Under the pieces are notes generated by a model, which was not told the origin of the DNA, searched no databases, and saw only the letters and a list, made by a program, of their open reading frames with translations. DNA of 64,000 nucleotides from a bacterium. GTDB taxonomy: Bacteria > UBA8248. The stretch is taken from assembly GCA_965203325.1 (NCBI GenBank), contig OZ241875.1, positions 640,001 to 704,000 on the forward strand. Direction: 5' to 3'. Made by a program: the position numbers and the translations under genes. Shown one piece after another: positions 35,171 to 62,838 of this stretch (its first letter is position 1; the number at the start of each line of letters is the position of its first letter).

Positions 35171-35830
35171 TTATCTCGCCTTCATCCCGTACTTCTCATA
35201 CTTCTTCGATGAGGCGGTGCTGAGCTTGGCGGATTGGGGCGTCTTGAGTTCGAGCAGCCAGGGCCGCTCAGCCGATGTGGCCCGCACGGCGTCCAAGAGG
35301 CCCTGCTCATCGCCTTCGCTCTCCCAATCGCCTTCTTCGAGCTTCACGAAAACGGGCTTGCCCTCGCCGAAATCGAGCGTGGGAACGCCGAAAATGCCCT
35401 GTTCAGCCGCATCCTCATGCTCTTGCGCGATGAGGGGGATGGTGGCGCCGCTTTTCATGTCCTCCTCCCAGCGATCGACGTCGAGGCCGACTTCCACGGC
35501 GATATCGCGCAAAACCAGTTCACTGGTGATGTCCTTGCCGTCGCGGTGCCTCGCCCGGTGGAGCGCCACGTGGTATTTGTCGAACTGGGTCTCGCCCTGC
35601 AAAGCCGCGCACTTGGCCGCTTGATGCGGGGGAAGGTCCCTGCTCGGGAAGGTTTTGTCCTCCCAGGCCTTCCAGTCCTCGCCGCGCGCCGGGCCGAAAT
35701 TCGCCTGTTCGAGCACGAAGGCCTTGTAATCCACTTTCAGATCGCTTCTTTTCTCCTGAAGACGAACGAGCCACTCCATGGCCCGGTAGGCGTAGGGTCA
35801 GACGTAGCAGTTCCACATGGTGACGTTCAT
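35171..35830 (-). CDS. DsbA/FrnE-like thioredoxin-fold protein, candidate selenoprotein (in-frame TGA at codon 11)
   Basis: AAGGAG RBS, then MNVTMWNCYV-TGA-PYAYRAMEWL... in frame with ORF 35171..35779; GIFGVPT cis-Pro loop. Confidence 0.8.
35767..35785 (-). other. Candidate bacterial SECIS hairpin
   Basis: CGGGCCAT-GGA-GTGGCTCG, 13-31 nt after the TGA. Confidence 0.55.
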
Positions 35831-35939
35831 GATTTTCTCCTTAAAAACGAGTTATCAAAGAGCATGGCGCGCTAATGATACACCACAAACTCGCAGATGA
35901 AAAAGCAGAGCAAAATCTTTTGAAAGTAGACGTTTCTCG

Positions 35940-36539
35940 CTAGTTTTCCGGCGTGAGCGCCTTGTTCAGCAATGCTTCCGCGCCCGCATTCAGGGAAAGC
36001 TCCCTGGCGGCTTCCTGCCCGCGCGCGGACATTTTCACCCAAGTTTTCCGCAAGATGCCGATGATTTTCTCCTCATCATGAAGCCGGGAGAAATCCCAGA
36101 AGTAGCTCTCCAAAAACACCAGACAGGCGACGTCCTCAAGCGTCTGGGTTTCCGGGTTTGATTTCAAGCCCTGCTTTTTCAAAAGCATACGGACTTGGGC
36201 TATCGTTTCCTCATCATAACCCACCTTTTTGAGAATCTCGGCCGCTTTCTCTCCATGATAGTCATAAAGGCGGATCCGCCATTGGTGGTATCCCTTCCGA
36301 CCCAGTGGATATTCCGAACGTGGAATCTCCCATCTGCGTATGTGTTGGCTCCGCACAGCCAGACGAAGAGCCTCTGAGGCTTGCGGCTCGATGGTTTCGA
36401 GCCATTTCGTCATTCTCATCGAATACAAAAGCTCTTTGGGATAATCTTCGCCCTCGAAACTCTCGGTGTTCGGATCCTCGGAATTTGCCTCATCGATGAG
36501 ACGCAAAGCATCTTCAAAACGTTTGGGATCTTCACTCAT
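35940..36539 (-). CDS. DUF4202 family protein
   Basis: ID.AN..DP, ELLY..RM, QHI.RW.IPR..YP, LEDVACLVFL. Confidence 0.85.
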   Translation of the reverse strand: MSEDPKRFEDALRLIDEANSEDPNTESFEGEDYPKELLYSMRMTKWLETIEPQASEALRLAVRSQHIRRWEIPRSEYPLGRKGYHQWRIRLYDYHGEKAAEILKKVGYDEETIAQVRMLLKKQGLKSNPETQTLEDVACLVFLESYFWDFSRLHDEEKIIGILRKTWVKMSARGQEAARELSLNAGAEALLNKALTPEN

Positions 36540-36716
36540 GATTTACACCTTCTCAGTTGCAATAAGCATTCACCAGAATCACTCCAGACAAGACTACTCA
36601 AGAATAAACGCCTGCTCGGGTTGACAAAAGCAAGAAAGTAAAATATTTTCCACAAAAAGTTAAGTATTTTACTTAACAATAAAAAGTAAAAACTGAATTT
36701 TATACGGGAATCTCTG

Positions 36717-37526
36717 ATGTATCAAGGAAAAGTACAGATTGTGGGAGCAGGTCCGGGGGACCCGGACTTGCTGACACTCAAGGCAGTGAAAGCTCTCTCA
36801 AACGCAGACTTGGTGGTTTATGACCGTCTCGTGAACCCTGAGATTCTTGAGCTTTGCCCGGAAAACTGCCAACTCGTCAATGCGGGAAAATCCAGTGGTC
36901 GACACACCATGAGCCAAGATGACATCAACGAAGCTCTAATCCATTTCGCCCATCACGGTTATCAAGTGGTGCGTCTAAAAGGCGGGGACCCTTTCGTTTT
37001 CGGCCGTGGCGGCGAGGAAGCGCAAGCACTGGCCAAAGCCGGTATTGATTTTGAAATCATACCAGGCGTCAGTTCCGCCCTGGCCGTGCCCGCCTATGCC
37101 GGAATACCCGTCACCCACCGAAACCTCGCCTCGTCGTTTACGGTCGTAACAGCCCATGAAGACCCCGGAAAACCAGAAACGCAAGTGGATTACGCGCATC
37201 TGGCAGAAAACAAAGGAACACTCGTTTTCCTCATGGGCGCGCGTTCCATCGGACGCATATCAGCCGCTTTGATGGAAAACGGCATGTCGAAAGACACGCC
37301 CGCCGCCATCATTGAAAATGGAACCACAAACAGGCAATTGGCCTACCGCTGCTCTTTGGGAGAAGCATCTAGCCTCGCACAACGCGAAGAAATATCCCCA
37401 CCCGCTGTTTTTCTCGTCGGACCCGTCGCCGGCCTTGAAGACCTCGTTTGGTTCGAGGCCGATGAAAGTCAAGAAATTTCCTGGCGCTGTCCCACGGAAG
37501 AATCCCTGAGCAAAGTCATTTCGTAA
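36717..37526 (+). CDS. cobA: Uroporphyrinogen-III C-methyltransferase
   Basis: GAGPGDPDLLT, VYDRLV, VRLKGGDPFVFGRGGEE. Confidence 0.95.
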   Translation: MYQGKVQIVGAGPGDPDLLTLKAVKALSNADLVVYDRLVNPEILELCPENCQLVNAGKSSGRHTMSQDDINEALIHFAHHGYQVVRLKGGDPFVFGRGGEEAQALAKAGIDFEIIPGVSSALAVPAYAGIPVTHRNLASSFTVVTAHEDPGKPETQVDYAHLAENKGTLVFLMGARSIGRISAALMENGMSKDTPAAIIENGTTNRQLAYRCSLGEASSLAQREEISPPAVFLVGPVAGLEDLVWFEADESQEISWRCPTEESLSKVIS

Positions 37527-37597
37527 ATGTCGGGCTTTGGCCCGGACCATAATTCATCATCCAATATGTGCACAGTTGTTCATGTAAGGAGTAAGTG

Positions 37598-39397
37598 ATG
37601 CATGAAGAATCACGAAAACCATTGTCTCGGGAAACAGGCGTCATTCCTGTGATCCCCGAAGAATTCGATGATTTTGAAACACAAGCCACCAGATTCCGTA
37701 ATGGAGAGCTAGATAACGGTGAGTTCCTCCCCTATCGCCTCAGGCGCGGCGTATATGGCCAGCGTCAGGCGGACGCACAGATGGTGCGCGTGAAAATCCC
37801 TTTCGGCGGTCTGAGCGCTTCCCAACTCGAAGCCCTGGGGCGCGTATCGCGCGATTACGTGCCATTGGGAAAAGGCCATGTGACGACACGGGAAAACGTG
37901 CAGTTTCATTTCGTCCCTCTCGACCAGTCCGCCGATGTCCTGAGGCTTCTGGGCGAAGTGGGACTTACCACGCGGGAAGCATGTGGAAATTGCGTAAGAA
38001 ACGTCACTGGCTGTCCCTATGCGGGCGTTTGCAAGGACCAGGTTTTCGACGCCACGCCCTACGCAGGCGCGTTTGCGCGTTACTTCGTCCGTAAGGATTT
38101 TACCCAGGACCTGCCGCGCAAATTCAAGGTGGCGTTCTCCAGTTGCGCTTCGGACTGTGTGGTCGGCGGAATTCATGACATCGGTTTCATTCCCGTTATC
38201 AAGGAGATGGAAGGAACTCCCGTACACGGCTTCAAGATGCTCGTCGGCGGCGGCCTCGCTACCTTCGCGCGTACCGCCGAAGTGCTTTACGAGTTTGTTC
38301 CGGTATCCGACTTCCTGAGGGTGAGTGAAGCCCTCATCCGGGTTTTCGACCAGGCGACTGAACTTCGCAAATCCCGTTTCAAGGCGCGCATCAAGTTCCT
38401 CGTAAGCTGGATTGGGATAGACGGGCTGCGCGAACGCGTCGAGGATGAGCTCAAGAAAGATTGGGCGAAAGAACCCGTCAGTCCCGAACCCTACCTTTGG
38501 AATGACGATGAAGAAACCGACGCCCCTCCCGTCTTGAATACCCTGAACGGGGCGGGGGCCAGCCCGAACGGCGACTCGGCGGATTATCACGCCTGGAGAA
38601 AAACGAACGTCACCGCGCAGAGACAAGAAGGTTATTTCGCTGTCGATGTAAAACTCCCATTGGGGAACATCCTTACGGATCAGTTCTTCTCTCTGGCCGA
38701 CCTCACCCGACGTTTCGCGAGAGGGCGCGCAAGAACGAGTTTCGAGCAAAACCTCGTGCTCAGATGGGTGCGCGAAGGCGAGCTTTACCCCCTCTGGAAA
38801 GAACTCCAACGCATCGGGCTCGCCGAAAAAGGCGCACGGGAGATATCCGACGTGGTTTCCTGCCCGGGAACGGATTCATGCAAACTCGGCATCACTTCCT
38901 CTATGGGCCTGGCCAACGCCATACGCGAAACACTGCGGGAAGTTGACCAAGACCCATTCACGCGGGAGATGCACATCAAGATGAGCGGTTGCCCGAATTC
39001 TTGCGGACAACACCACATCGCCAACATCGGCTTTCACGGGGGGACGCTCAAAGCGAACGGCGTGATGCTGCCCGCTTATGAAATTTTCCTAGGTGGCCAA
39101 TACGATAGTACCGATGGAGAAATCCGCATCGGCAAACGCATCCAGGTTCGGATTCCCGCAAAACGCGTTCCCGCCGCGCTCAAGAAAATGCTGTCCCACT
39201 ACCAGGAAAACAGAAGCGAGGGCGAGCGGTTCAACGAGTTTTTGGATCGTGTGGGCAATGCGTCCTTTGAAGATTTGCTGCACGAGTTTCACCTTGCCGG
39301 TCAGTTCAATGACGAGCCCGATTCTGATTTGTTCATCGACTGGAGTCAGGACAGGCAATACGTTCTGGAGAGAGGAGAAGGCGAATGCCTAGCCTAG
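37598..39397 (+). CDS. Siroheme-[4Fe-4S] nitrite/sulfite reductase
   Basis: TTRENVQ, LPRKFK, CPGTDSCKLG, SGCPNSCGQH. Confidence 0.9.
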   Translation: MHEESRKPLSRETGVIPVIPEEFDDFETQATRFRNGELDNGEFLPYRLRRGVYGQRQADAQMVRVKIPFGGLSASQLEALGRVSRDYVPLGKGHVTTRENVQFHFVPLDQSADVLRLLGEVGLTTREACGNCVRNVTGCPYAGVCKDQVFDATPYAGAFARYFVRKDFTQDLPRKFKVAFSSCASDCVVGGIHDIGFIPVIKEMEGTPVHGFKMLVGGGLATFARTAEVLYEFVPVSDFLRVSEALIRVFDQATELRKSRFKARIKFLVSWIGIDGLRERVEDELKKDWAKEPVSPEPYLWNDDEETDAPPVLNTLNGAGASPNGDSADYHAWRKTNVTAQRQEGYFAVDVKLPLGNILTDQFFSLADLTRRFARGRARTSFEQNLVLRWVREGELYPLWKELQRIGLAEKGAREISDVVSCPGTDSCKLGITSSMGLANAIRETLREVDQDPFTREMHIKMSGCPNSCGQHHIANIGFHGGTLKANGVMLPAYEIFLGGQYDSTDGEIRIGKRIQVRIPAKRVPAALKKMLSHYQENRSEGERFNEFLDRVGNASFEDLLHEFHLAGQFNDEPDSDLFIDWSQDRQYVLERGEGECLA

Positions 39398-39837
39398 AAG
39401 AACAATTGGAATTTCTGGACGAGGCGTCCGAGGATCAGGTGAAAATCGCTGTTTTGCTCGTCGGTCACGGCAGCCGAGCCCAAAACGCCAACGAAGCGCT
39501 TTTCCGCGTCGTGGACCATTTTCAAAAAGCATGGCCGCATCGCATATTGAAGGCCGCATTCCTGGAGATCAGTCACCCCTCCATTCCTGAGGGAATCGAC
39601 TTGTGCGTAGCGAAAGGAGCTGAAAGAATCATCGTCATCCCTTATTTTCTTTTCAGGGGCAATCACGTTAAAGAAGATTTGCCCGTCTTCATCAAAGAAT
39701 GCCGGAGGAAATACCCGGATATCGACGTCATTTTGGGCCCGCATCTCGGCTTCCATCCCAAGATGATCGAGATCGTCGACGAGCGAATCCAGCAAGTGCT
39801 CGATACCCTAAAATTCGAGGAGAATGCGCTCCCATGA
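39385..39837 (+). CDS. Sirohydrochlorin chelatase (SirB/CbiX-S)
   Basis: VGHGSR, AFLE, PYFL..G.H...D.P. Confidence 0.88.
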   Translation: MPSLEEQLEFLDEASEDQVKIAVLLVGHGSRAQNANEALFRVVDHFQKAWPHRILKAAFLEISHPSIPEGIDLCVAKGAERIIVIPYFLFRGNHVKEDLPVFIKECRRKYPDIDVILGPHLGFHPKMIEIVDERIQQVLDTLKFEENALP

Positions 39838-40808
39838 CCGACCAAAACGGATCCGCCCGCCCCATCGCCATTTATTATGAACATCCCGAGTGGTTCAAAA
39901 AGCTTTTTGAGGAACTCGACAGAAGGGATGTGGCATATGAAAAAATAGAAGCCTACAACCATCGCTTCGATCCAACCGAAACCGAATCGCCTTATACGCT
40001 GATTGTAAACAGGATGAGTCCATCTGCATGGGCGCGCGGGCATACCCATGCGATTCCCTACACGCTCGAGTATTGCGCGCACCTCAAGGCGATTGGCGCC
40101 AATGTGATCAACGGCTACAAGGCCTATCTCCATGAATTCTCAAAAGTGCGTCAAACCCGCCTGCTTAACAGTCTGGGCGCCAACCACCCGAGGTCACGGG
40201 TGATCAACCACCCCTCCCAGGCCCCGGCGGCGGCCGAGGGGTTCAGTTTTCCCATCATCACGAAAGCGAATATCGGCGGGAGCGGAGCCGGTATACAAAA
40301 ATACGACACGCCTGAAGAACTCCAACGAGCGGCGGATGAAGCGAGCATCGATTTCGGCATCGACAATGTGGCGCTCGTTCAGGAATACATCCCGCCGCGT
40401 GGAGATCAAATCGTCCGGGTCGAAGTTTTGAACAGCAAGTTCCTTTATGCGATTCAACTGGCGTTGGTGGACCCGAATTCCTTTAATCTCTGCCCGGGCA
40501 GTTACTGCCGCCGCAACGAGGAGGTCGCATGCGGGGTGAACGGCAGAAACGCTTTGATTGAGAAGGTCACACCACCAAGAGAGGTAATCGATACAGTCGA
40601 GAAAATCATGCAAACAGCCGGGATAGAGGTCGGCGGCGTAGAATATCTGGTCAGCGACAAGGATGGAGAAATATATTATTACGACATCAATGCGCTCTCC
40701 AATTTCGTGGACGATGCGCAAAATCTCATCGGTTTCGACCCTTGGCCGCTGATGGCCGACTTCATTCTCGATCGCGTGCAGCACCCTGCTCCGGCTCTAA
40801 GTATTTAG
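39834..40808 (+). CDS. ATP-grasp (RimK/GshB-like) ligase
   Basis: K.NIGGSGAG, QEYIP, YDINALSNF; ATGA coupling to the chelatase gene. Confidence 0.8.
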   Translation: MTDQNGSARPIAIYYEHPEWFKKLFEELDRRDVAYEKIEAYNHRFDPTETESPYTLIVNRMSPSAWARGHTHAIPYTLEYCAHLKAIGANVINGYKAYLHEFSKVRQTRLLNSLGANHPRSRVINHPSQAPAAAEGFSFPIITKANIGGSGAGIQKYDTPEELQRAADEASIDFGIDNVALVQEYIPPRGDQIVRVEVLNSKFLYAIQLALVDPNSFNLCPGSYCRRNEEVACGVNGRNALIEKVTPPREVIDTVEKIMQTAGIEVGGVEYLVSDKDGEIYYYDINALSNFVDDAQNLIGFDPWPLMADFILDRVQHPAPALSI

Positions 40809-40860
40809 TGCTCAGGCCAAAGCGCTTTGATGGGCCTACATACTTTTCTATAATGGGGGC

Positions 40861-41757
40861 GTGTTTGAGACAGCCGCCGTATATGCCCTCATATCAGCAA
40901 TTTTGCTTGCGCTAAGGGATATCTTCGGGCGCTTTGCAGTTCGTGGCATAGACCCCATCACCGGAACGGCCTTTACCGCCATCATCGGCCTGCCCGTTCT
41001 CTGGATTGTCTCCGTTTTGAGGGGAGATTTTTCAGACCCCTGGCCGGGCTTGGGCTGGCCTCTTCTATTCATCGCCATCGCGGGAATTTTCAGGGTCTGC
41101 TTTGCGCGCACCATGCTCTTCGCCGCCACGCAGCACATCGGGTCCGCGCGCACGAGCACTATCGTCGCGACGAATATGATATTCGCCGTATTCTTCGGCG
41201 TCGCCTTGCTGGGAGAGGCACTCACGGTCACTATCGGGCTGGGCGCCCTGCTCGTGTTTGTCGGCTACCTCTTCATCGCCAGGAGTCATCCCAATCACCA
41301 GGGGGGTGAATCCCCTAAAAACCCGTATATCGGAATGGGATTGGCGCTCGGCTGCGCGCTGGCCTTCGGAGCAGCCGCAGTGCTTGTGCGACCAGCGGTG
41401 GGGTTCTTCACCTCAGCCAACGAGGCGAACTTCTATTCCAACATTTTCGCGGTAGCGGCCTTTTTGCCTTTTCTCTTTCGCAAAGGAAAAATTGGCGAAA
41501 TCAAAAACTGGACTCCGAGCAACTGGGGGTTCCTCGCTCTGGCCGGTCTATCCGCTAGCCTCGGCGTTACGTTTCTCTATCTCGCGCTGGCGAATGCTCC
41601 CGTCGTCTACGCCTTCCCCATCGCGCAATCAAGGCCTTTGTTCGCCATCGCTATTTCATGGGCTTTTCTTCAATCGGAAGAGAGAATGAACTGGCGCGTC
41701 GTGGCGGGCGCGCTCGCCATTTTTTCGGGCACGGTTACCCTGATTTTCAACGAATAA
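40861..41757 (+). CDS. DMT/EamA family transporter
   Basis: About 10 TM, two EamA repeats. Confidence 0.85.
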   Translation: MFETAAVYALISAILLALRDIFGRFAVRGIDPITGTAFTAIIGLPVLWIVSVLRGDFSDPWPGLGWPLLFIAIAGIFRVCFARTMLFAATQHIGSARTSTIVATNMIFAVFFGVALLGEALTVTIGLGALLVFVGYLFIARSHPNHQGGESPKNPYIGMGLALGCALAFGAAAVLVRPAVGFFTSANEANFYSNIFAVAAFLPFLFRKGKIGEIKNWTPSNWGFLALAGLSASLGVTFLYLALANAPVVYAFPIAQSRPLFAIAISWAFLQSEERMNWRVVAGALAIFSGTVTLIFNE

Positions 41758-41926
41758 GGCATTTGGGCAGTTCCACGAAAAACCTCTGGAATCAACCCTT
41801 CATTTCCATGCAAAAAATTGCGCACGAGGCTGGCAGGAGGAAAAAACCAGTTGCGGAAGGTCAGGCCTTGGGCTAAAGTTGTATCAAAATATTGGATATT
41901 CACTCCATCAAGGAGAATTCCACGAC

Positions 41927-42265
41927 ATGATGAACATCGGGGAAGAAAAGCTAGATTCTGTTGTCATCGTTGCGATTGAGGGGCGTGTAGACGGTACCAC
42001 CGCCCCGGAGTTGGAAAACCGGATTTCGGAAATCGTCAATCGTGGTGATGCGCATGTCTTGTTCGATTGCGCAGGAATGACATATGTCAGCAGCGCCGGG
42101 CTGCGCATATTTCTCACGAGCGCCAGAAAATGCCAGCAAAACGGGGGCAAGTTGATGATCTGCGCGCTACAGCCCGATTGCAAGTCAGTGATAGAAACCA
42201 GCGGTTTTCATACTGTCATCGATTGCCACGATACTCGTGAGGCAGCCCTTGCGGCGGCTTCATAA
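41927..42265 (+). CDS. STAS-domain anti-sigma factor antagonist
   Basis: G..D, YVSSAGLR phospho-Ser motif. Confidence 0.9.
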   Translation: MMNIGEEKLDSVVIVAIEGRVDGTTAPELENRISEIVNRGDAHVLFDCAGMTYVSSAGLRIFLTSARKCQQNGGKLMICALQPDCKSVIETSGFHTVIDCHDTREAALAAAS

Positions 42266-42276
42266 AGGAGCGCTCC

Positions 42277-42930
42277 ATGCTGACATTTGTCGATGAAATC
42301 TTATTGCTGATGCTCGATGACGAGAAAGGTTCGTTTCTTCCCATTCGCGAAAGCACGATGGGGTATGTGCTAGCGGGCGCCGTTCTCATGGACTTGGCGT
42401 TTGCAAACCGCATCGACACCGATCCCAGCCAGTTGATGGTTCTGGACAAAACCCCGATCGGCCACTCGCCGCATGATCGGATTCTCGAAAACATAGCGGC
42501 TTCCGACGAAACCAGGGATGCCAAGGCCTGGATTGAAACGATTTCCCGAGAGGCCACAGAAATCCGCGAGCAATCCCTGTCCGGTCTGGTCGATAACGGT
42601 ATTTTGGAATCCCAGGAAGAAAAGTTCTTATGGGTCTTCCGGGCGCGGAGATACCCGACGATCGATGGTCGCGCCGAGCGCGAAGTGAAGCTGCGCATCA
42701 CCGGCGTGCTGCTATCGGATGAAACTCCGGATCCCAAAGATGTCGCTTTAATCTGTCTTGCCGATGCATGCAACATTCTGCGTGACGTATTTTCCGACAG
42801 GGAGATTAGTCGGATACGTCCCCGTATCGATCAGATCCGTAAGCTGGATCTCATCGGACGTGAAGTCAGTGGAGCGATTCAGGAAATCGAACAGGCGATC
42901 ATGGCGGCGATGACGCATGCCCATCACTAA
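42277..42930 (+). CDS. GPP34/GOLPH3 family protein
   Basis: LT..DE.LL..LDD..G, LAGA.L.DL, LV..GIL, F...RYP. Confidence 0.82.
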   Translation: MLTFVDEILLLMLDDEKGSFLPIRESTMGYVLAGAVLMDLAFANRIDTDPSQLMVLDKTPIGHSPHDRILENIAASDETRDAKAWIETISREATEIREQSLSGLVDNGILESQEEKFLWVFRARRYPTIDGRAEREVKLRITGVLLSDETPDPKDVALICLADACNILRDVFSDREISRIRPRIDQIRKLDLIGREVSGAIQEIEQAIMAAMTHAHH

Positions 42931-52615: not shown

Positions 52616-52650
52616 AAAAAAAGAGGGGAGAAAACGACTCCCCTTTTTAT
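52616..52650. terminator. Bidirectional intrinsic terminator
   Basis: A-run, AGGGGAG..CTCCCCT stem, T-run between convergent genes. Confidence 0.75.
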
Positions 52651-52669: not shown

Positions 52670-53134
52670 CTACGATGCGCCGGTATTCTTCTTGCGGTTG
52701 GCGAATTCCTCGAAATATCCTCCGATAGAGGAAGCTCTCCAGTCAAAGCCAATCTCTTGGGCTTTTTGCAGCACTTCGTCTCCGCTCAAGCCTTCTTCTT
52801 CGGCCAAGTGAACAAGCGAGCAAATCCCGGCTCGCCCCACGCCTTTTCAGTGAACGTACACCGGACCGTCTCTCTTCGCCTCATGGAGCGCTTCATGGAT
52901 TCGTCCCGATAACGCATCATTCATGTTAGCGGCATTCACGGGAATATTCACAAAGTCCATTCCCAGTTCCCTCGCCGCCTCTCGTTCTGCATCGGGTGGC
53001 AACTCCGGTTCTTCCTCATCGGCGAAACGCAAATTGACCAGGGTTTTAATCCCCTTATTCGCCAGAGATTCCATATCCTTCCGGCCCGGCTGACTCCCGA
53101 ACACCAGATTTTCCGCCAACTCGAAGTAGTCCAT
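52670..53134 (-). CDS. DUF442/TIGR01244-like sulfurtransferase/PTP-fold protein, candidate selenoprotein (TGA at codon 96)
   Basis: ORF track stops at PVYVH-TGA; the frame continues KGVGRAG...GLSGDEVLQKAQEIGFD...TGAS to TAG at 52670, giving 154 aa. Confidence 0.82.
52814..52837 (-). other. Candidate bacterial SECIS hairpin
   Basis: GGGCGAGC-CGGGATTT-GCTCGCTT, 10-33 nt after the TGA. Confidence 0.55.
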
Positions 53135-53157
53135 ACCCCTTTTCCTCGACGATAGTT

Positions 53158-54000
53158 TTAGACTCGTTGCACCAGTTCTCGACAGCGAAGCAGGCAGGTT
53201 GCCTTTTCTTCTTCTCCGTCACGTTTATAAACTCCAAGCAGATTGTTGATCATTCTCTCCACAATGCGGCGAGGGGGAGTTTCCTGTAAAAACCGCATGT
53301 CGAAATGATACCCGAAGCTCCGCACAATCGCCGCGCAATCCCCTACGCTTAAGCGTTTTCCCCTGTCGAAGGGATCCAAAAATATGGGTTGCTCATCACC
53401 TTGGTATTTCACGATAAAATGTCCCGGCATTCCGACTCCGCAAAAGGGAAGTCCCAACCGCCCGGCAAGAATCAAATACAAAGCGGAAAGTGAAATGGGG
53501 ATGCCACGCCTGCGCTCCAATACGCGATTCATGAAACTGTTCTGCGCATCATAATAATTGTCCCGCTCGCCATCGAAGCGAAGCTCCCCATGTAGATACT
53601 CCACGAATTCGTCGACAATGGCATCGGCTTTACCTATACCCTCCAATCGCCTCCGCAAATGATTTTCCATACCCAGCAGTTCGTCTTTTTTCGTCTCCAT
53701 GTTTTCGAGCGGATGGCCGAAAGACGCCAACAAGAAGCAAGCGTCTTCCAGATCCACACCATCCACCGAGGAAAGAGACCAGTCCGAAAAAGCAATCTCG
53801 ATTTGACTGTAATGAAATTCCCGAAGCGAAGGCGGCAGTATCACCTCGCTCGCCTCGCTCTTCTTCATCATGTCCAGAAGTCTTTTCTGCTCCTCAGTCG
53901 AAAATTCGGCAACCTGGCGGTCCAATGCCGCCGTCACACGCGCTGAACCATCATTCAATAAATGGCAGAACGCCTCTAATTGCGAGTCACTCAGCGACAA
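53158..54000 (-). CDS. SirB1/transglutaminase-like (Transglut_core2) protein
   Basis: F.G....YY...NS....VL.RR.GIPISL, PGHF, DPF..G, RM..NL. Confidence 0.85.
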   Translation of the reverse strand: MSLSDSQLEAFCHLLNDGSARVTAALDRQVAEFSTEEQKRLLDMMKKSEASEVILPPSLREFHYSQIEIAFSDWSLSSVDGVDLEDACFLLASFGHPLENMETKKDELLGMENHLRRRLEGIGKADAIVDEFVEYLHGELRFDGERDNYYDAQNSFMNRVLERRRGIPISLSALYLILAGRLGLPFCGVGMPGHFIVKYQGDEQPIFLDPFDRGKRLSVGDCAAIVRSFGYHFDMRFLQETPPRRIVERMINNLLGVYKRDGEEEKATCLLRCRELVQRV

Positions 54001-54104: not shown

Positions 54105-55730
54105 ATGTCTACGTATGCCGACGTTGTGGCGGAAGTCCTGCAAGACGCGGGCATCGAATTCATTTTCGGGGTTCCTGGCAGTTTGAGTTCCGTCGAACTC
54201 ATCGAAGCTGCGAGAAAACGGAACATTCGCTACATCCTATGCAGCAACGAGAGCAGCGCAGCCGTGAAGGCGGGAACGTACGGCATCATGACTGGACGAC
54301 CGGGAGTTGTGAGTACGGGTGTCGGCCCGGGGGCGGCTGCAGTCCTCCACGGCGTGGCGAACAACTATCTCGAGCGTGCCCCCTGTCTCATTTTGACCGA
54401 TCGCTTCTCCGACGAGCAGTTTCGCCGTCAAGGACGGCAAAAACTCGATCAGGATCGTTTATTTCTTCCAATTACGAAAGGTACGATTAAGCTCGCGAAA
54501 GACAACGCTGCAGTAGCCATCAGGCGGGCACTGGCTCTGGCCGCCGAAGGGAGGCCGGGTCCCGTACATGTGGACCTCCCCTACAACGTCATGCTGACAA
54601 ACGCCGAAGAAAGCGATTTTCCACCCAAGACAAACCCCAAAAAGTATGTTGGCCGCATCGGTTCCGCCCACCCGGGCATTACAGCAACTCTCAAAGCAAT
54701 CTCGGAGTCGAAAAACCCGATAGTCATAGCGGGACTCCAGGTAAACCGCTCGGGACGAGAGGCGGAAAAGGAGTTCATATCATTCGCCGAAAAAATCGGC
54801 GCACCCGTTCTCGCCGCACCATCAGCGAAGGGCGTCTTGCCGGAACACCATCCCCTTGCCATGGGCACCTTCCGAGGCGCTCCCTCAGAACGGGAATTGA
54901 TAGACAAGTCGGACTTGTTTCTTTTGGTGGGATTCGACACGGTGGAAGTGTTTGCACCCGGATACTGGGACTATCCCCAGAAAGTGATCAATCTCGATGA
55001 AGTGCCGCATCTCGATGATTTGATTCGGCCGGAAATTGAAGTCGTTGGCCACCTTGCCGACATCCTCAGGGAGTTGAGCGCTACCGTCTCCCCCAGCCAT
55101 GCCTGGAACACCGAAGAGATGGATTCCTATAAAAAAATGAGGCAATCCGAATTGTTCCCCACTGGAGAGGGCTTGATGCCCGGCGCCGTCATTCGAATCG
55201 CGCGGGAATGCCTCCCCGATAACGGCATCATGACCGCGGATGCGGGAAGCCATAAAGTCCTGGCCAATGATATTTGGGAGACGAGGCGCCCTCTGGGTTA
55301 TCTGACCTCCAGCGGGCTGGGTTCGATGGCGGTTGCCACACCCGCCGCTATGGCCGCCAAGTTAATCGAACCAGACACGCCGGTTGTCTGCCTCACCGGG
55401 GACGGGGGTTTTCTCATGCGGATTGGCGACATGGAAGTCGCCGTTCGAGAAAATATCCCCTTCGTCACCGTCGTATTTAACGACCGCTACCTGAACCTGA
55501 TCAAAATCAAACAAGACAACCGCTCTTTCCCACGCCTTGGCACCGAGTTCCGAGATTCCGACTATTCGTCGGTGGCGAAAGGGCTGGGTTGTGAGGGCGA
55601 GAGAGTTTCTACTGAAAAAGAATTGAAAGATGCGCTCGCTCGTGCATTTTCATCCGATAAACCCTGGGTCATCGACGCCGTTATCAATCCTGACGGCTAT
55701 GTGGCTTCAAAAGACGTTCGCGCAGAGTAA
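54105..55730 (+). CDS. Thiamine diphosphate-dependent enzyme (acetolactate synthase-like superfamily)
   Basis: FGVPG, NE, GPG, GRPGPVH.DLP, GDGG...ND; ATG after AGGAGG. Confidence 0.88.
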   Translation: MSTYADVVAEVLQDAGIEFIFGVPGSLSSVELIEAARKRNIRYILCSNESSAAVKAGTYGIMTGRPGVVSTGVGPGAAAVLHGVANNYLERAPCLILTDRFSDEQFRRQGRQKLDQDRLFLPITKGTIKLAKDNAAVAIRRALALAAEGRPGPVHVDLPYNVMLTNAEESDFPPKTNPKKYVGRIGSAHPGITATLKAISESKNPIVIAGLQVNRSGREAEKEFISFAEKIGAPVLAAPSAKGVLPEHHPLAMGTFRGAPSERELIDKSDLFLLVGFDTVEVFAPGYWDYPQKVINLDEVPHLDDLIRPEIEVVGHLADILRELSATVSPSHAWNTEEMDSYKKMRQSELFPTGEGLMPGAVIRIARECLPDNGIMTADAGSHKVLANDIWETRRPLGYLTSSGLGSMAVATPAAMAAKLIEPDTPVVCLTGDGGFLMRIGDMEVAVRENIPFVTVVFNDRYLNLIKIKQDNRSFPRLGTEFRDSDYSSVAKGLGCEGERVSTEKELKDALARAFSSDKPWVIDAVINPDGYVASKDVRAE

Positions 55731-55893
55731 TGGAAATTTTTTGCTTGACACAATCTTCTCAACAACGCATGTTATACTGTATCTCGTTCGCTTTGATGGG
55801 GGGAATTCGCATTCCCTTTTGAATCAGAGTCCAGGCTGGGGCTGGGCATGATATCCTCGACCTCATGAGGGGTCTCGCGCGGGAGGATTGTAA

Positions 55894-56100
55894 GTGCCAG
55901 AAGGAACAGTGAAGTGGTTTAGCGACAAAAAGGGGTATGGCTTCATTTCTCGGGAAGATGGCGACGACATCTTCGTTCACTTTTCCGCCATCGTTGCGGA
56001 TGGATTCAAATCACTGAAAGAAGGTGAAAAGGTCACATTCGAGATCACCCAAGGTCCCAAAGGACTTCAGGCGGCGAATGTAACCAAACAAGAAGAATAA
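55894..56100 (+). CDS. cspA: Cold-shock protein
   Basis: [29 protein letters not shown]. Confidence 0.93.
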
Positions 56101-56136
56101 CTTTCCTCCCTATCATCGTATCTCATCGGGTAAAAG

Positions 56137-57492
56137 CTACACGCTGGCCTCGGTATACCCTAAAACCGCCTGTGCTGCATTTTCCCCGCTTCTCACCGCA
56201 CCCTCTACGGTGGCCGGCAATCCCGTGCGAGTCCAGTCTCCAGCCAGAAAAAAACCCTCTATCGGCGTTTTCGTATCTACCCGGTATCTTTGCTCCGCTA
56301 CCCCGTTCGCCCAGGTAGCGGCGCGCTCCCGCACCACCAAAATATCTCGAATATGGTTCCGGGGAATCATTCGATTCAGGCAATCTCTCGCAGAAGACTC
56401 GATAGTCGCTCGCTCAGCAGATGCGACGGAATCTTCCGCTCCTGCCAACAGACACACCAGATTCCTCACGCCTTTTCCACTGAATTCCGGGCGAAACAGC
56501 CAGTCCCATTCCTCATCTACAATCGCTTCGAAAGGAGGTCCCTCATCCGGTTCCTCAAGCCAGCAATAGGCGCTAGCAATAGGCCCCGGGCGTAGTTTTC
56601 CCAGATTCGAGAAGGGCACCCGTTCACTGAGTTTCCCGCCCAGCAGTCTGCCAAGGGCGTCGGGCGGCACGGCGGAAATAACGGCAGCCGCATGCAAGGT
56701 CTCGCTCTCTTTCAGAATCACGCCTCTCATTATTGAATTCTTGACGTCAAACCCGACGGCGGGCTGCTGAAGCCTCAACTCTCCGCCGTGGTGCCGGATG
56801 TGTTGAGCCGCGCTGTTGGCCCAAAGCGTACCCAAAGCCTTCATCGGCACCCCCAGCGCAGCTCCCTTGGGCCCATCGGCGAAAGCCTCGCGAATTACCG
56901 TCCTAAAGAGCGCCGCACTCCCCTGTTCCAAAGGCAAGTTCAATACAGCGCGCGCAAACGGCTCCCAAAACCAACGCACCGCCTCATCCTTCTGGCCAAG
57001 GCCATCAAGCATGTCACTCATGGATTCACCTGGGTTCTCACCGCCCGATTTGGAAACAATCTTCGAAAGGCCTTTCAGAAGATTCACTTTCTCCCCAAGA
57101 CGAGGGCCACGCCATTTGAGCAAGCCCCAGAGTTGCGCCAAAACTCCTCCACCTTCCGGAAATGACAATTGCGTCCGCCTAGCCGAATCCGCTTCCCGAA
57201 TCCGGTAGCTCACCTCCAGGGAGGGTGAGAACAAAACATCATCAGTGGCGCCAACTCTTTCCAAAAACGATCGCAACGCCGGATTGGCCGCCATGAACAA
57301 ATGCGGGCCCCAGTCCAGTTCCAAACCCGTGGATGAGTGAATGAAACTGCGCGCCCGGCCGCCGAGCAACTTCCCCGCCTCGAGCACGATTACTTTGATG
57401 CCCGACTCGGCAAGGCGTAAGGCAGCGGACAGCCCGGCGGCGCCGCCGCCGACGATGACAACCGGTCGCTCGAATCCGACAGGTTCAGGCAT
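56137..57492 (-). CDS. hpnE: Hydroxysqualene dehydroxylase
   Basis: GGG.AGL, LGGRARSF, LAGDWT.TGLPAT.EGAVRSG; follows hpnCD. Confidence 0.85.
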   Translation of the reverse strand: MPEPVGFERPVVIVGGGAAGLSAALRLAESGIKVIVLEAGKLLGGRARSFIHSSTGLELDWGPHLFMAANPALRSFLERVGATDDVLFSPSLEVSYRIREADSARRTQLSFPEGGGVLAQLWGLLKWRGPRLGEKVNLLKGLSKIVSKSGGENPGESMSDMLDGLGQKDEAVRWFWEPFARAVLNLPLEQGSAALFRTVIREAFADGPKGAALGVPMKALGTLWANSAAQHIRHHGGELRLQQPAVGFDVKNSIMRGVILKESETLHAAAVISAVPPDALGRLLGGKLSERVPFSNLGKLRPGPIASAYCWLEEPDEGPPFEAIVDEEWDWLFRPEFSGKGVRNLVCLLAGAEDSVASAERATIESSARDCLNRMIPRNHIRDILVVRERAATWANGVAEQRYRVDTKTPIEGFFLAGDWTRTGLPATVEGAVRSGENAAQAVLGYTEASV

Positions 57493-59652
57493 TTATGCTT
57501 CCAGAAAACAGCGAAGCGCTTCCAGTAGTTTTTCCCTGGACTTCAAAGAGGGGCGATAATCCATATGTCGAAAATGATTCTCCTCCATCTCGCTCAGGAG
57601 TCTCCGATAAATTCGGCCCATGATTCTGGCGGGAAGAAGGTTGCCTGTCTTCTCGCAACTCAAAGCTTCGTTCGCCCCCTCATAGTATTCACGTGCCCGA
57701 TGCGCCAGGAACCGAAGAAGGCTTAAAACCTCGGAAGTATCGTTTTTGTCTCTCAAATCGGATACCGTTACTCTATACTTCTCCATTTCGCTTCGCGGAA
57801 TATAAATGCGTCCCTGTTCCGCATCTTCCCATACGTCTCTCAAAATGTTCGTCATCTGTAGCGCTCTGCCCAAACAAACGGCGTAGTCTTTCGCAAAAAC
57901 TGATTTCGCCTCAAAGATGCCCAGACACGCCAGCCCTACTGCGGAAGCCACCTTGTCACAATAATTTTCAAGGTCCGATAAATTTTCAAATCGGCTCTCT
58001 TCCAAATCCATCGCCACGCCGTCACAAATCGCCTGGAAATGCTCCGGCGGCAAGTCGTATTTTCGCGACGCCCATGCGAGTTCCCCGATTATCGGGTGGG
58101 CTGGACTCTCCCCGCCCAACTGATCCAATGCCTCTTTCCACTCGCGCAACGAGATTGTTTTGCCAGATATTTCGCCTGGCTCATCGGCGATGTCGTCGGC
58201 CATGCGACAATACGCATAAACCGCCGTGATGGCGCGCCTTTTCTCCGCAGGAAGGCTGAAAAAAGACAGATAAAAATTCGACCGGCTCGCACGAATGAAC
58301 CAGCGGCAGTATGCACGGTTCAACTCTTCTTCGGCATGCAGATCCACACTGGATTCGAGTCGATAGACCGGGCGAAACGCCGCGAGCAACGATTGGGCCT
58401 TGTCCCGGCCATTCAAAAGCGGTGAACCCGCGCAGACGTTCCATTCCACACGGGAAATTGCGTCAAGCGCCGCAACGCCGCCGCGCCAAATCGCACGAAG
58501 TTCACGGCCCAATGCGCCGCGGGTTCGGTACAAAAGGGGCAAACCCTGCCTGAAGAGTCTTTTTGTTCTCTTTATCTGGAAAACCAGGAACGCGCGCAAT
58601 TGAGGCGTCGCCACATCTGCAAGCAAATCATCCTCGGAGACGGAGAATCCTTTCATCTCATCCTGAGGCATATAGACGATGCCGCGTTCGGCGTCTTCTT
58701 TCACATCTTGTAAGTGATTCGCAATCTGCAAGGCCGTGCAAATGGCGTCCGAGGCGCGAAATGCCTCTTCATCGCGTATCCCGTGCAGCATAAGAACGAT
58801 TCGCCCGACGGGATCCGCCGAGCGGCGGCAATAATCGAGCAAGGCTTCATAGTTCGGATACCGGAGGACTGTGACGTCTTGTTTGAATGCCGAGAGCAAA
58901 TCCAGAAATGGCTGTAAGGGCAAATCGAATTGTTGAAGCGTATGGGAAAGCGCTATGAACACGTCCGTATCTGCGATTCCCTTCTGGGCCGACACGAGTT
59001 TTTCTTCCCATTCATCGAGACGGTCGAGCCGCTCTTGTGTAGGTCTTGTCGTATCCGCGATATCATCGGCGCCCCTCGCGAATGCGTATACCGCGGCGAC
59101 GTGCGGCCTTATCTTCGCCGGCAACAACTTCGAGGCGACGGGAAAATTTTCGTAGTGGCCGACGACGATTCTCATGCAGGTATCATAAGCGGCGCTTAAG
59201 CCAGCCTCTGAGACGGATTTTGCCTCTTCACGCGAATCCCCTATTTCCTCGCCATTCATGAGAGATTCTATCAATCGCGCATCCGCAGGCAGGAAATCAA
59301 AATCCCCGAGCGAAGAAGGATGGACCCACTCGTGCTCCGCCACCCCCAAATTCTGAGTCACTCCGCTTTTCCACTCACAATCATAAAAGCGTAGGTGGAC
59401 GTCTCTGTCGGGATAGCTGTGACGGGTTTCCCAATGAAGAGAGCCAACGCGCACTTCGACCCCTAGTTCCTCGCATATCTCCCTTTGCAAGGCTTCCCGG
59501 GGGCTCTCACCATCCTTTATTTTACCGCCGGGAAATTCCCAATAACCCGGCATGTGTCCACCCTCAGGGCGCTGACAAATGAGAATGCGCCCTTCATGCC
59601 GGACAATCCCGGCGACGACGTTCAACTCCAAAGCGGCGGTTTCGCTCTTCAT
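57493..59652 (-). CDS. Nudix (MutT-like)-HpnC-HpnD triple fusion
   Basis: Nudix box WEFPGG...GE...AL.RE..EE; HpnC HYENFPVAS and DDIAD; HpnD SNFY and DDIAD, NILRD..ED. Confidence 0.85.
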   Translation of the reverse strand: MKSETAALELNVVAGIVRHEGRILICQRPEGGHMPGYWEFPGGKIKDGESPREALQREICEELGVEVRVGSLHWETRHSYPDRDVHLRFYDCEWKSGVTQNLGVAEHEWVHPSSLGDFDFLPADARLIESLMNGEEIGDSREEAKSVSEAGLSAAYDTCMRIVVGHYENFPVASKLLPAKIRPHVAAVYAFARGADDIADTTRPTQERLDRLDEWEEKLVSAQKGIADTDVFIALSHTLQQFDLPLQPFLDLLSAFKQDVTVLRYPNYEALLDYCRRSADPVGRIVLMLHGIRDEEAFRASDAICTALQIANHLQDVKEDAERGIVYMPQDEMKGFSVSEDDLLADVATPQLRAFLVFQIKRTKRLFRQGLPLLYRTRGALGRELRAIWRGGVAALDAISRVEWNVCAGSPLLNGRDKAQSLLAAFRPVYRLESSVDLHAEEELNRAYCRWFIRASRSNFYLSFFSLPAEKRRAITAVYAYCRMADDIADEPGEISGKTISLREWKEALDQLGGESPAHPIIGELAWASRKYDLPPEHFQAICDGVAMDLEESRFENLSDLENYCDKVASAVGLACLGIFEAKSVFAKDYAVCLGRALQMTNILRDVWEDAEQGRIYIPRSEMEKYRVTVSDLRDKNDTSEVLSLLRFLAHRAREYYEGANEALSCEKTGNLLPARIMGRIYRRLLSEMEENHFRHMDYRPSLKSREKLLEALRCFLEA

Positions 59653-59667
59653 TCAAGCTCCAAGAGT

Positions 59668-60477
59668 TCAATCCTGAGGAGGGTCGGTTGCCGCATACTC
59701 CGGCAAGCGCCTGAGAACACTTGAAAACACGATGGGTTCCGCCAGGGGCAACGCCTCGGCCAGTTCTTTTTCATCCGCAAAATACTCACCCGGCAGGACC
59801 AATCCCGGCATCCGCAGCTTGATCGAATCCCCAGAAAACGGCCAAGGGGATATTTCCAGATCGTCCACGTTGGCCGTTTTCACTTTCAAGCCGCTTTGCT
59901 TCAAGGGGTGGACAGCGTCATCGGGTGGGGTGATTTCCGGCGCCCGGCACGCCAACAGGGATAACGTATCGCAAACCCTGAGCAAAGACACGGAATTTTC
60001 GATTGCTCCTTTGTGTACCGGCTCAATCAGGGCGTCCAACATCTTCTGCCGTTTCGATTCAGCGTGGATAAACCCGTTCAGGACTTTGGAAACTTCGCCG
60101 GGCGCACCCCTTCTGCCTCCCTCGGCGAGCGAAGAGAAGTGAATGCTGACCAGACAACCCGAAAGCGGATGAAAAGACGCGCAGGCATCAATGCCCTCCG
60201 ACCATATTTCCACCGCCTTGTCCGCCGTTATGCCGAAAAAACTGTAAGGCAGTTTCGTCATTTCATCCCATCTCGGCGTGGCATCCGGGCGGCACCATCC
60301 AACGTCATGGTTGTCGATGGCGAACAAAACTTTCTCTCTGAGTTCATCCGGCGGGGAGGGAAGCGATTCAATACCTACCCAATTTCGCGCAATCGTGCCT
60401 GCGGCCCGGGCATGGTCATGCTGACAGATGAGGCGAACATGGCTATCTCGCGGACAAACTATCATTTGAAACACCAA
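59668..60477 (-). CDS. DUF3891-like protein
   Basis: Q.DHA..AG.IA..W, AI..HD.GW, S.H, CD.LSL, PWPF. Confidence 0.75.
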   Translation of the reverse strand: MVFQMIVCPRDSHVRLICQHDHARAAGTIARNWVGIESLPSPPDELREKVLFAIDNHDVGWCRPDATPRWDEMTKLPYSFFGITADKAVEIWSEGIDACASFHPLSGCLVSIHFSSLAEGGRRGAPGEVSKVLNGFIHAESKRQKMLDALIEPVHKGAIENSVSLLRVCDTLSLLACRAPEITPPDDAVHPLKQSGLKVKTANVDDLEISPWPFSGDSIKLRMPGLVLPGEYFADEKELAEALPLAEPIVFSSVLRRLPEYAATDPPQD

Positions 60478-60694
60478 AAAACGGCGGAGAATCCATTCTC
60501 AATCCGTTGAATCTCCAAATCCATGACCCAAAAGTATTTTATTTCGCCTGTAGAAAATGTAACAACCACCATGGCGGCAAACAAGAAAAAACAAGCAAAT
60601 GTAACAACCACTTGAACAAGCGTGCCAAAACACATAATTTTGCTACAAATCAGTATATATTCTTGTCCTGGAAATAAGGAAATCGCGCTAAATC

Positions 60695-62131
60695 ATGAAT
60701 CGAAAAAATTCCCCGCAGGATCCCGGTTCAGTCGGTCTGACGAAAACACGTATCATCACCCTTCCCGATCCGTTCCGGACCGATTCCGGCGAAACATTGC
60801 CTGAAGTCCAAATTGCCTATGAAACATATGGCGAACTCTCGCCCGACGCCGACAACGCCGTTTTGGTCATCCACGCTCTAACGGGCGACGCACACGCAGC
60901 CGGCTTCCACAGCCCGGACGACCCGCGTCCGGGCTGGTGGGACCCGATGATCGGCCCCGGCAAAGCAATCGATACCCGAAAATACTTCGTCGTCTCCTCG
61001 AACAACCTGGGGGGATGCTCAGGCACCACGGGGCCCGCTTCGATCAATCCCGCGACGGGCAGAGCTTACAACACCGGTTTTCCCGTCACCACGGTGGAGG
61101 ACACGGTTCGCGTCCACAAGCTGCTTCTCGACCATCTGGGCGTGAAACGCCTCAAAACGGTCATCGGCGGCTCGCTCGCCGGGATGCAGACCCTGGAATG
61201 GGGCCTGCGCTACAGCGATTTTTGCGACTCCGTCATCCCAGTCGCGGGAGCCGCGCGCCTGGACCCGATGGGCATCGCATGGGACAAAATCGCCCGCAGG
61301 GCCATCACGGCGGACGGCGACTGGAAAGACGGCGACTACGCCGCCGGCGGAGGGCCACGCAAGGGTCTGAGCGCGGCGCGCATGCTGGCCCACATCACCT
61401 ACCTGAGCCGAGGAATCATGTGGGAGAAATTCGGCCGCGAGATCAGGGACAAGGACAAAATGCTGGAGGATATCGCCTCGCGGTTCGAGGTGGAGAGCTA
61501 TCTCGATCACCAGGGGGACAAATTCGTCGATCGTTTCGACGCGAACTCGTATCTATATATCTCCCGCATGATGGACCTGTACGACGCCTCCCTGGGCTTC
61601 GAGAGCCTCGAGGCGTCGCTGTCCCGGCTGAAAACGAAATGCCTGCTCGTATGCTTCATATCCGATTGGCTCTTCCCGCCGGAGAGAAGCATGGAGATCG
61701 CCCAGATTCTCCAGAAACTCAGGCATGAAGTGGAGTTGCACACGGTGGAATCCACCTACGGGCACGATGCTTTTCTCGTGCAATACGACAAGCTCACCGA
61801 AATCGTCGGTGGCTTTCTCGAAAGGCTCGAAAGCGGCGGCCCGGTCGGCATCAACGCAACCCCCATACCCCGGGGCTGCAAGCGGCTGGTTCTCTCTGTG
61901 CCGGGTCATCTCGTGCAGAAACCTATCTTGTGGGAGATCGGCAGAAAATACTCGTTTACCATCAACATCATGAGGAGCGAGCTGGACGCCCAATCGGGGT
62001 GGCAGGTATGCGAATTCGCTGGAAACGAGGAGGAAATCGCACAGGCGATCGCTGAACTCCGGGAGATGGGGGTGTGGGTCGACCCCGGAGGGCATGACAC
62101 CATCGACCACGACCGCGCCGAAGTGGTATAA
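60695..62131 (+). CDS. metX: Homoserine O-acetyltransferase with a C-terminal NIL domain
   Basis: HALTGD, GWW, GGSLAG, RFDANSY, D.LF, GHDAFL; extra about 90 aa NIL-like. Confidence 0.88.
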   Translation: MNRKNSPQDPGSVGLTKTRIITLPDPFRTDSGETLPEVQIAYETYGELSPDADNAVLVIHALTGDAHAAGFHSPDDPRPGWWDPMIGPGKAIDTRKYFVVSSNNLGGCSGTTGPASINPATGRAYNTGFPVTTVEDTVRVHKLLLDHLGVKRLKTVIGGSLAGMQTLEWGLRYSDFCDSVIPVAGAARLDPMGIAWDKIARRAITADGDWKDGDYAAGGGPRKGLSAARMLAHITYLSRGIMWEKFGREIRDKDKMLEDIASRFEVESYLDHQGDKFVDRFDANSYLYISRMMDLYDASLGFESLEASLSRLKTKCLLVCFISDWLFPPERSMEIAQILQKLRHEVELHTVESTYGHDAFLVQYDKLTEIVGGFLERLESGGPVGINATPIPRGCKRLVLSVPGHLVQKPILWEIGRKYSFTINIMRSELDAQSGWQVCEFAGNEEEIAQAIAELREMGVWVDPGGHDTIDHDRAEVV

Positions 62132-62205
62132 ACCAGAAAATTACTGCCATTCTGATATTCACCGGATATGACAGAACTCGACAAAAACCAGACGGAGGCA
62201 ACGCC

Positions 62206-62838
62206 ATGAGTGAGTTGAAAGAGCCGATCGTAGTGGTGAAATACTCGGATTACACATGACCTTTTTGCTATGTCGCCACCGTGGGTGGCACGCCCGTCAT
62301 TGAAGAAGACCCCGACGTCGTCGTCGAGTGGGTCAGTTGGGAGGGGAGACCGCCCGGCCAGGAGTTCGCCGGCTACTCGCCCGAGCAGAAACAGGAAAGT
62401 TACGAGAATAACCACAAACCTCTCGCCGAGAAATACAACGTGCCCATCCGGGTGGCGGGAGGCGACTACCGCACGACCAACCTCCACATGGCCACCTATT
62501 ACGCCCGCGACAAGGGCAAGTTCAAGGAATTCCGGAATCGCTGCTACAAGGCCCGCTGGGAGGACGACCTGAACCTGGAGGATCTGGACGTCATCGCCGG
62601 GCTCGGTGAGGACGTCGGCCTCGACGGAGAGGAAATCAAGGCCGTCATCGCCGAGGGACGCTACATCGGCGCGCTGCACAGCCAGCGCGCCCAGGGAAAA
62701 GGGTTGGGTATTTACGGCATCCCCACGTTCGTGGTGGAGGGAAAGCTCTTTTGGGGGAAAGACGTCATCGACGACGTCAAGGCCGAGGTCGCCCGCGTGA
62801 AGCAGGAACGACTCGAAAAAGAGAAAGAGGAGAGCTAG
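62206..62838 (+). CDS. DsbA/FrnE family oxidoreductase, candidate selenoprotein (UxxC, TGA at codon 18)
   Basis: GGAGG RBS, then MSELKEPIVVVKYSDYT-TGA-PFCYVAT in frame with ORF 62281..62838; GIYGIPTF. Confidence 0.88.
62272..62291 (+). other. Candidate bacterial SECIS hairpin
   Basis: GCCACC-GTG-GGTGGC stem-loop, 16-30 nt after the TGA. Confidence 0.55.

Follow-up and report, generated by a model that had tools for sequence, protein, structure and literature searches.

Three genes within 28 kb (35171-62838) of a 64,000-nt stretch of bacterial DNA each carry an in-frame TGA, which raises the question of whether these triplets are stops that leave broken genes or codons for selenocysteine (Sec). 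The stretch, here called the window, corresponds to C1:640001-704000 of the single-contig, 4.39-Mb genome with 60% G+C. The original prediction, made from the letters of the window, had placed the TGAs at the catalytic Cys of the three genes and had proposed an expanded selenoproteome that standard gene callers miss. We located the TGAs, as predicted, at the codon for the active-site Cys in two genes of DsbA-like proteins (P1 and P3) and in that of one protein with the DUF442/protein tyrosine phosphatase (PTP) fold (P2), and all three are very probably intact selenoprotein genes with Sec at the active site. The mechanism by which UGA, a selenocysteine insertion sequence (SECIS) and SelB direct Sec insertion is textbook, and so is most of what is described here.

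UGA codons at conserved active-site positions

All three genes start with an ATG behind a purine-rich stretch that resembles a Shine-Dalgarno sequence, and the open reading frames (ORFs) that continue through the TGA exceed the Pfam cut-offs of DSBA (P1, P3) or PF04273 (P2). Conservation was counted across 51 genomes of one small phylum. TGA was retained down to 37–49% protein identity among relatives of the three genes, and the corresponding codon or residue was TGA in ortholog rows and Cys in solved or aligned homologues, as detailed below for each gene.

P1 (35171..35830, minus strand) encodes 219 aa in its read-through form, with the motif C8-x-x-U11-P-Y-A in the context C-Y-V-U-P-Y-A-Y and the Sec codon at 35798..35800 (minus strand). 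It scores 66.5 bits against Pfam DSBA (PF01323, 3.6e-18, gathering cut-off 25.6). Full-length orthologs of 49–100% identity were recovered from 49 of the 51 genomes and 14 of 15 genera, and all 49 rows have the TGA; the remaining two genomes contain a contig-end fragment only (G047) or a distant paralogue (G040). The best solved relative is the DSBA-domain protein 7dk9 in the PDB (1e-13), in which the Cys of C-P-Y-A aligns with the Sec of U-P-Y-A; the one paper found under this code is a preprint on side-chain modelling. P1 has no resolving Cys at +3, where Ala stands instead, and the UxxC motif is absent from all 29 unique orthologs; a Cys at -3 (CxxU) is invariant in the same 29. A paralogue in the genome (C1:760949-761632) has U-P-W-A and lacks the -3 Cys.

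P3 (62206..62838, plus strand, 210 aa) is a DsbA-like protein of the UxxC type (U18-P-F-C21, in D-Y-T-U-P-F-C-Y) with its Sec codon at 62257..62259 (plus strand) and a DSBA score of 93.4 bits (2e-26, cut-off 25.6). In alignment with FrnE (PDB 5cnw, 5cp1), the U falls on the first Cys of the CPWC motif. The TGA occurs in 57 of 64 rows, the exceptions being two contig-end C-terminal fragments and five relatives of 26–29% identity.

P2 (52670..53134, minus strand, 154 aa) has the motif H95-U96-x4-R101 (V-H-U-K-G-V-G-R-A-G) and its Sec codon at 52847..52849 (minus strand). Four families of the PTP clan and DUF442 pass their Pfam cut-offs with E-values of 3e-9 to 2.5e-7, namely PF04273 (35.2 bits, cut-off 26.1), PF22741 (36.9 bits, cut-off 27), PF22784 (34.2 bits) and PF22785 (31.6 bits). 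P2 was matched in 35 of the 51 genomes with TGA in 57 of 58 rows, the other row being a partial match; genomes of genus g1 hold two copies, and the paralogue in the genome studied here lies at C1:2265222-2265674. Contigs from three sequencing runs of three studies, one of which may be the source of the window, have no other letter at 52847-52849, and one contig spans this stretch with 30 differences elsewhere. Contigs of the paralogue matched window positions 52815-52856/52869. An HMMER search with P2 against a protein library returned 1819 relatives at E ≤1e-3. In an alignment of 38 of the 150 relatives listed, mostly higher-scoring stand-alone proteins of about 146–165 aa and one of 197 aa, the U column holds Cys in 36 and Ser in two, while H95 and R101 are invariant. 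Cys-form homologues are common, and the closest among the matches listed, P0026, is 49% identical to P2 and has Cys. A terminator-like hairpin with a T-run (52624..52644, minus strand) lies about 25 nt past the full-length stop, that is, after the read-through ORF and not after the UGA.

Hairpins downstream of the UGA codons

Bacterial SECIS elements, as searched for by bSECISearch, are stem-loops just 3' of the UGA with a G in the first loop positions. Hairpins of this layout follow the UGA of P1, P2 and P3, and their loops, GGA, CGGGAUUU and GUG, contain the G that the original prediction had described. Counted from the U of UGA as nt 1, the P1 hairpin CGGGCCAU-GGA-GUGGCUCG (35767..35785, minus strand) spans nt 16–34 with 8 bp and -10.3 kcal/mol, the P2 hairpin GGGCGAGC-CGGGAUUU-GCUCGCUU (52814..52837, minus strand) spans nt 13–36 with 8 bp and -11.1 kcal/mol, and the P3 hairpin GCCACC-GUG-GGUGGC (62275..62289, plus strand) spans nt 19–33 with 6 bp and -8.9 kcal/mol. 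A local pattern scan stood in for a covariance model because the three hairpins differ in position and loop. The frequency of hairpins of this pattern at or below -8.9 kcal/mol is 3.8% after random TGAs (n = 6000), 4.2% after TGAs that end long ORFs (n = 1207) and 4.5% after in-frame Cys codons (n = 3481). Against this background of about 4%, hairpins at all three genes are unlikely by chance (~1e-4), and a single hairpin would prove little.

The stems are conserved at the nucleotide level. Thirty loci were fetched per gene, and the sets used for entropy comprised 29 (P1), 23 (P2, drawn from 24 loci matching the first motif pattern) and 31 (P3) unique sequences. Third-position entropy at conserved four-fold codons was 0.22, 0.41 and 0.29 inside the hairpins of P1, P2 and P3, compared with 0.92, 1.07 and 1.15 outside them. 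In P1, no change of the stem codons GCC and CUC occurs among the 29 unique orthologs, and the closing pair is U-G, U-A or C-G and never C-A. The P2 core GGGCGRGCCGGGRUYUGCUCGCU was kept in 30/30 fetched loci, which include orthologs and the paralogue; in this genome, the cores of P2 and its paralogue differ little in nucleotide sequence. For P3, all 31 unique sequences share the stem codons GCC, ACC and GGU, and 30 of them GGC; four synonymous stem sites, each paired to a fixed first-codon base, are frozen, and the loop codon varies freely at its third base (entropy 1.26).

Two shared features had been pointed out in the original prediction. The GCCA...GUGGC arms common to the two DsbA hairpins are indeed present. 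GCC at nt 16–18 likewise occurs in all three genes, but as a general determinant it did not hold up: of the 48 predicted selenoprotein genes, 9 have GCC as the sixth codon past the UGA, which makes the triplet enriched but not a general signal; in some genes it simply belongs to the 5' arm.

Selenocysteine decoding and alternative explanations

The complement for bacterial Sec decoding (selA, selB, selC, selD), on which the prediction depends, is present in the genome. The tRNA-Sec scores 75.9 bits and its anticodon is tca according to ARAGORN, selA (571 bits) and selB (393 bits) are encoded on one strand at a distance of about 1 kb, and selD (333 bits) carries one in-frame TGA of its own. In the mechanism that we propose, SelB with Sec-tRNA(Sec) would bind the small hairpin with its G-rich loop that starts 12–18 nt 3' of each UGA and would deliver Sec at the UGA, giving a full-length protein in which Sec replaces the nucleophilic active-site Cys. 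We infer this insertion for P1, P2 and P3 alike.

If the TGAs were instead real stops, in pseudogenes or through assembly or sequencing errors, fragments or nothing would be made. Gene callers do yield such fragments. Under the standard code P1 becomes a 202-aa ORF from Met18, P2 a 95-aa stump and P3 a 185-aa ORF with a GTG start; the 37 public protein matches to P1 range from 128 to 204 aa and reach no more than 92% query coverage, with the best ones at 202 aa, and 25/25 public matches to P2 have 84–95 aa, one of them named sulfur transferase domain-containing protein. Some of the P1 matches are labelled Tectomicrobia or Deltaproteobacteria, so that the Sec form of P1 extends beyond this phylum. 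Real stops are nevertheless extremely improbable given that about 50 assemblies retain the identical TGA codon between flanks under purifying selection, that it is present in the contigs from three studies beside a full Sec machinery, and that it hits the catalytic residue exactly in three unrelated genes. Hardly more probable is a decoding of UGA as Trp, Gly or Cys, by a general code change or by near-cognate suppression. Translating the TGA as any residue gives open frames in P1, P2 and P3, and other bacteria insert Cys at Sec codons under selenium limitation. TGA is, however, the commonest stop codon of the genome and ends 1207 of 2498 long ORFs, so it is not reassigned, and among 125,638 TGAs only 1257 are flanked by coding-like sequence both upstream and downstream; moreover, the recoded sites fall on Cys positions with SECIS-type hairpins, in a genome with a tca tRNA-Sec, selA, selB and selD.

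Several observations weigh against reading the three genes as selenoprotein genes. The 51 genomes are kin, and the row counts therefore overstate independence. Whole 60-nt folds downstream of the UGAs did not exceed shuffled sequences in stability (z = -0.35, -0.25 and +0.21), and because these scores were not significant the local hairpin pattern with its three null sets was adopted; Rfam at gathering scores gave 0 matches in the whole window. Base-pair covariation is sparse and two-sided covariation scarce. The case for the hairpins is carried mainly by the frozen synonymous sites, and these hairpins coincide with stretches that encode conserved peptide motifs, above all GRAGICSL in P2. Given this overlap and the scarce covariation, we regard the evidence for selection on the SECIS as strong, and not as proof. 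The coding score downstream of the UGA in P2 is modest (0.11). In X19, the one RNA run, a single 208-nt contig of 90–95% likeness covers 52992-53136 only; the library may hold DNA, and the contig is not evidence of expression. Taken with the conserved TGAs and the decoding machinery, these points leave selenoprotein genes as our strongly favoured explanation.

Predicted functions of the three selenoproteins

We likewise infer three different catalytic chemistries from folds and motifs. P3 would be a classical UxxC thiol/selenol-disulfide oxidoreductase of the DsbA-like type. P1, of the DsbA fold, would act through a single nucleophile (U-P-Y-A), which may be resolved by the conserved -3 Cys (CxxU) or by an external thiol.

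For P2, an AlphaFold model (predicted local distance difference test score, pLDDT, 95.7) matched in Foldseek best the DUF442 structures 2f46 and 3gxh (template modelling (TM) scores 0.72–0.78). The U aligns ungapped to the Cys of the Cys-x4-Arg loop in 2f46. Among sulfur transferase models of NCBIfam, NF040641 (1.6e-17) and TIGR01244 (3.3e-14; 53.1 bits, cut-off 85.85) match P2 below their cut-offs. Sulfur transferase activity (thiosulfate:cyanide and thiosulfate:glutathione) is reported for the DUF442 domain of Blh in the available part of PMC5823870. Based on the DUF442 structure match, the NCBIfam pointers and the Blh activity, we read P2 as a putative Sec-dependent sulfur, possibly selenium, transferase, a CX4R P-loop protein of the DUF442 type whose selenolate would carry sulfane sulfur and possibly selenium. 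A Sec-dependent protein or lipid phosphatase is the alternative that we consider, and it draws on the PTP-clan families PF22741, PF22784 and PF22785, all above their cut-offs, and on the PTP-fold phosphatases that Foldseek lists next (Tk-PTP, TpbA and dual-specificity phosphatases, TM 0.65–0.76). We think it unlikely, since the best structural matches are DUF442 proteins, the NCBIfam hits point to sulfur transferases, and the P2 loop aligns to PTP-like 2m3v only with a one-residue gap. P2 does not have the classical PTP signature Cys-x5-Arg, its loop being one residue shorter.

A sulfur, possibly selenium, transferase thus remains the preferred function for P2, and its gene has a recurrent neighbour. 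A transglutaminase-like (Transglut_core2) gene at window positions 53158-54000 (minus strand) ends 24 nt before the P2 start, and the pair recurs in 29 of 30 P2 loci from several genera, including those of orthologs with 44–46% identity. The 30th locus is that of the paralogue, downstream of an OsmC-like selenoprotein gene. There, the P2 paralogue (H-U-K-A-T-G-R-A-G) starts 23 nt past the OsmC-like gene, forming a tandem of Sec genes (C1:2264639-2265674, plus strand, L159/L160).

The other neighbours of P1, P2 and P3 are ilvD and genes for a thiamine pyrophosphate (TPP) enzyme, a MetX-like hydrolase, a DUF4202 protein, a GBBH-like_N protein and a tetrapyrrole methylase; as these are housekeeping genes, the three selenoprotein genes are functionally unlinked. 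Three such genes in 28 kb compare with about 0.3 expected from 48 genes in 4.39 Mb, and the arrangement is syntenic in the relative G026 (at 699–727 kb). The clustering may be chance because the region was chosen after the fact.

Selenoproteome of the genome

A scan of all 125,638 TGAs of the genome left 1257 with coding-like flanks, of which 129 were followed by a hairpin of -6 kcal/mol or lower. Seventy candidates were submitted to Pfam, comprising 57 that passed a stricter coding filter, three more from the hairpin list and ten hand-picked UxxC or CxxU cases. Forty-two of them had a family match, which spans the TGA in 39 (SelD by TIGR00476); in two GrdB-type genes the match ends 1–4 residues before the TGA, and one two-domain rhodanese was placed by its active-site motif. 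The larger groups are UGSC (n = 8), CMD/AhpD-like (n = 8), OsmC (n = 5), AhpC/TSA (n = 4), deiodinase-like (n = 3), rhodanese (n = 2) and GrdB-type (n = 2), with GrdA, DsrE, Rdx, Grx, Trx, DUF3179, DSBA, SelD, DUF442 and CoA-transferase represented once each. Adding the three window genes brings the selenoprotein genes matched by Pfam or TIGRFAM to at least 45 (42 with the match spanning the TGA, two abutting it and one placed by motif), and three CxxU genes without a Pfam match come on top. The scan needs at least 25 codons past the TGA and filters on coding score and hairpin; 45 is therefore a lower bound, and hairpin statistics of the hits are biased. This bears out the predicted expansion of the selenoproteome, and also its omission by gene callers, as the public P1 and P2 calls are cut at or after the TGA.

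The remaining 28 of the 70 candidates had no Pfam domain across the TGA, and 22 of these had no match at 1e-5. We rejected L136 (the TGA is a true stop), L139 and L172 (genes that in fact start past the TGA), L186 (two genes in one frame), and L174 and L194 (domains confined to one side of the TGA). The false candidate L139 (C1:977153-980089, minus strand) has TrwC relaxase and AAA_30 helicase domains, which points to a conjugative or mobilisable chromosomal element. Three CxxU genes with SECIS-like hairpins and no Pfam match at 1e-5, L187 (C1:3728770-3729558), L196 (4368981-4369721) and L189 (3808702-3809301), were kept on motif alone as probable selenoprotein genes. Their motifs, …TECNNU[IL]GHNVELGRA… and …IGGCYGUTMNHGQ…, suggest that they are probably related to AhpD.

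Among the other genes, the CoA-transferase-like L190 (C1:3929618-3930442, minus strand; PF01144 at residues 7–223) carries a TGA in frame at codon 102, and a 9-bp hairpin of -13.9 kcal/mol lies downstream of it. The TGA occurs in 35/35 rows at 63–100% identity, and a second gene of the genome, a paralogue with 46% identity, encodes Cys at this position. Genes for the glycine reductase selenoproteins GrdB and GrdA (C1:522633-523994 and 525322-525810, minus strand, L132/L133) lie about 1.3 kb apart in this organism, whose relatives are labelled Nitrospinota; a second GrdB-like UxxC gene was found at C1:2665217-2666140. The UGSC-family gene L163 (C1:2370391-2372046, plus strand) is fused to a C-terminal part of about 360 aa without a Pfam match at 1e-5.

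Relation to known selenoproteins and sulfur transferases

Table 1 of PMC13188914 (2026) lists 119 prokaryotic selenoprotein families, including DsbA-like form 1 (UxxC; PF01323), first reported from the Sargasso Sea, and form 2 (DxxUP). It has no entry for DUF442, PF04273, TIGR01244, phosphatases or CoA-transferases, the family of L190 included, and none for a non-rhodanese sulfur transferase; our literature search found no paper that combines DUF442 and selenocysteine. Judged against these two sources, the Sec form of DUF442 is possibly new, and to a lesser degree this applies to the U-P-x-A form of DsbA, which was likewise not found in print. DsbA-like selenoproteins as such are already known, and so, from the available part of PMC13326102, are very large selenoproteomes in Nitrospinota-labelled UBA8248 genomes. 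Three UBA8248 metagenome-assembled genomes (MAGs) labelled Nitrospinota/Nitrospinaceae are among the ten richest bacteria in BSepDB, with 48, 50 and 54 genes (PMC13326102, Table 2). Their selenoproteomes are similar in size to the at least 45 genes found here, with the difference that BSepDB, as described in that part of the source, counts known families only, unlike our scan.

In our judgement the case is evenly balanced for the joint proposal that P2 and its paralogue form an uncatalogued family, the first Sec enzyme of the PTP/DUF442 fold, with a selenolate in a CX4R loop that carries sulfane sulfur or selenium, and that P1 represents a third, monoselenol (CxxU-P-x-A) DsbA-like form. If this is true, the lineage would, with the CoA-transferase-like Sec gene, hold several families absent from the 2026 catalogue. 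P2 is cut to at most 95 aa in all public calls found, and a Sec-containing DUF442 fold is missing from the fullest family list consulted; the genome is a clear case of annotation in which dozens of redox enzymes lose their active site. P2 and its Cys homologue P0026 offer a natural Sec/Cys pair for asking what selenium buys in a CX4R loop.

Compared with known systems, P3 shares PF01323 and Sec at the first position of CxxC with DsbA-like form 1, differs in nothing essential and counts as an ordinary member. Neither P1 nor its paralogue fits form 1, as both lack the second Cys, and their fit to form 2 is only loose, with C or E in place of D. P2 has in common with DUF442/PF04273 proteins (the sulfur transferase domain of Blh from Xylella and Agrobacterium; 2f46, 3gxh) the PTP fold, the H-C-x4-R loop and a length of about 150 aa. 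Unlike Blh, it stands alone, with no dioxygenase fusion, and has Sec at the catalytic Cys, and unlike known DUF442 systems it adjoins the transglutaminase-like gene. A parallel in mode of action would be the rhodanese-like selenoproteins (forms 1–5 in Table 1 of PMC13188914), of which this genome has two: in these, too, the active-site Cys of a sulfur transferase is replaced by Sec, in a protein that differs from P2 in fold and family (PF00581, not the PTP clan).

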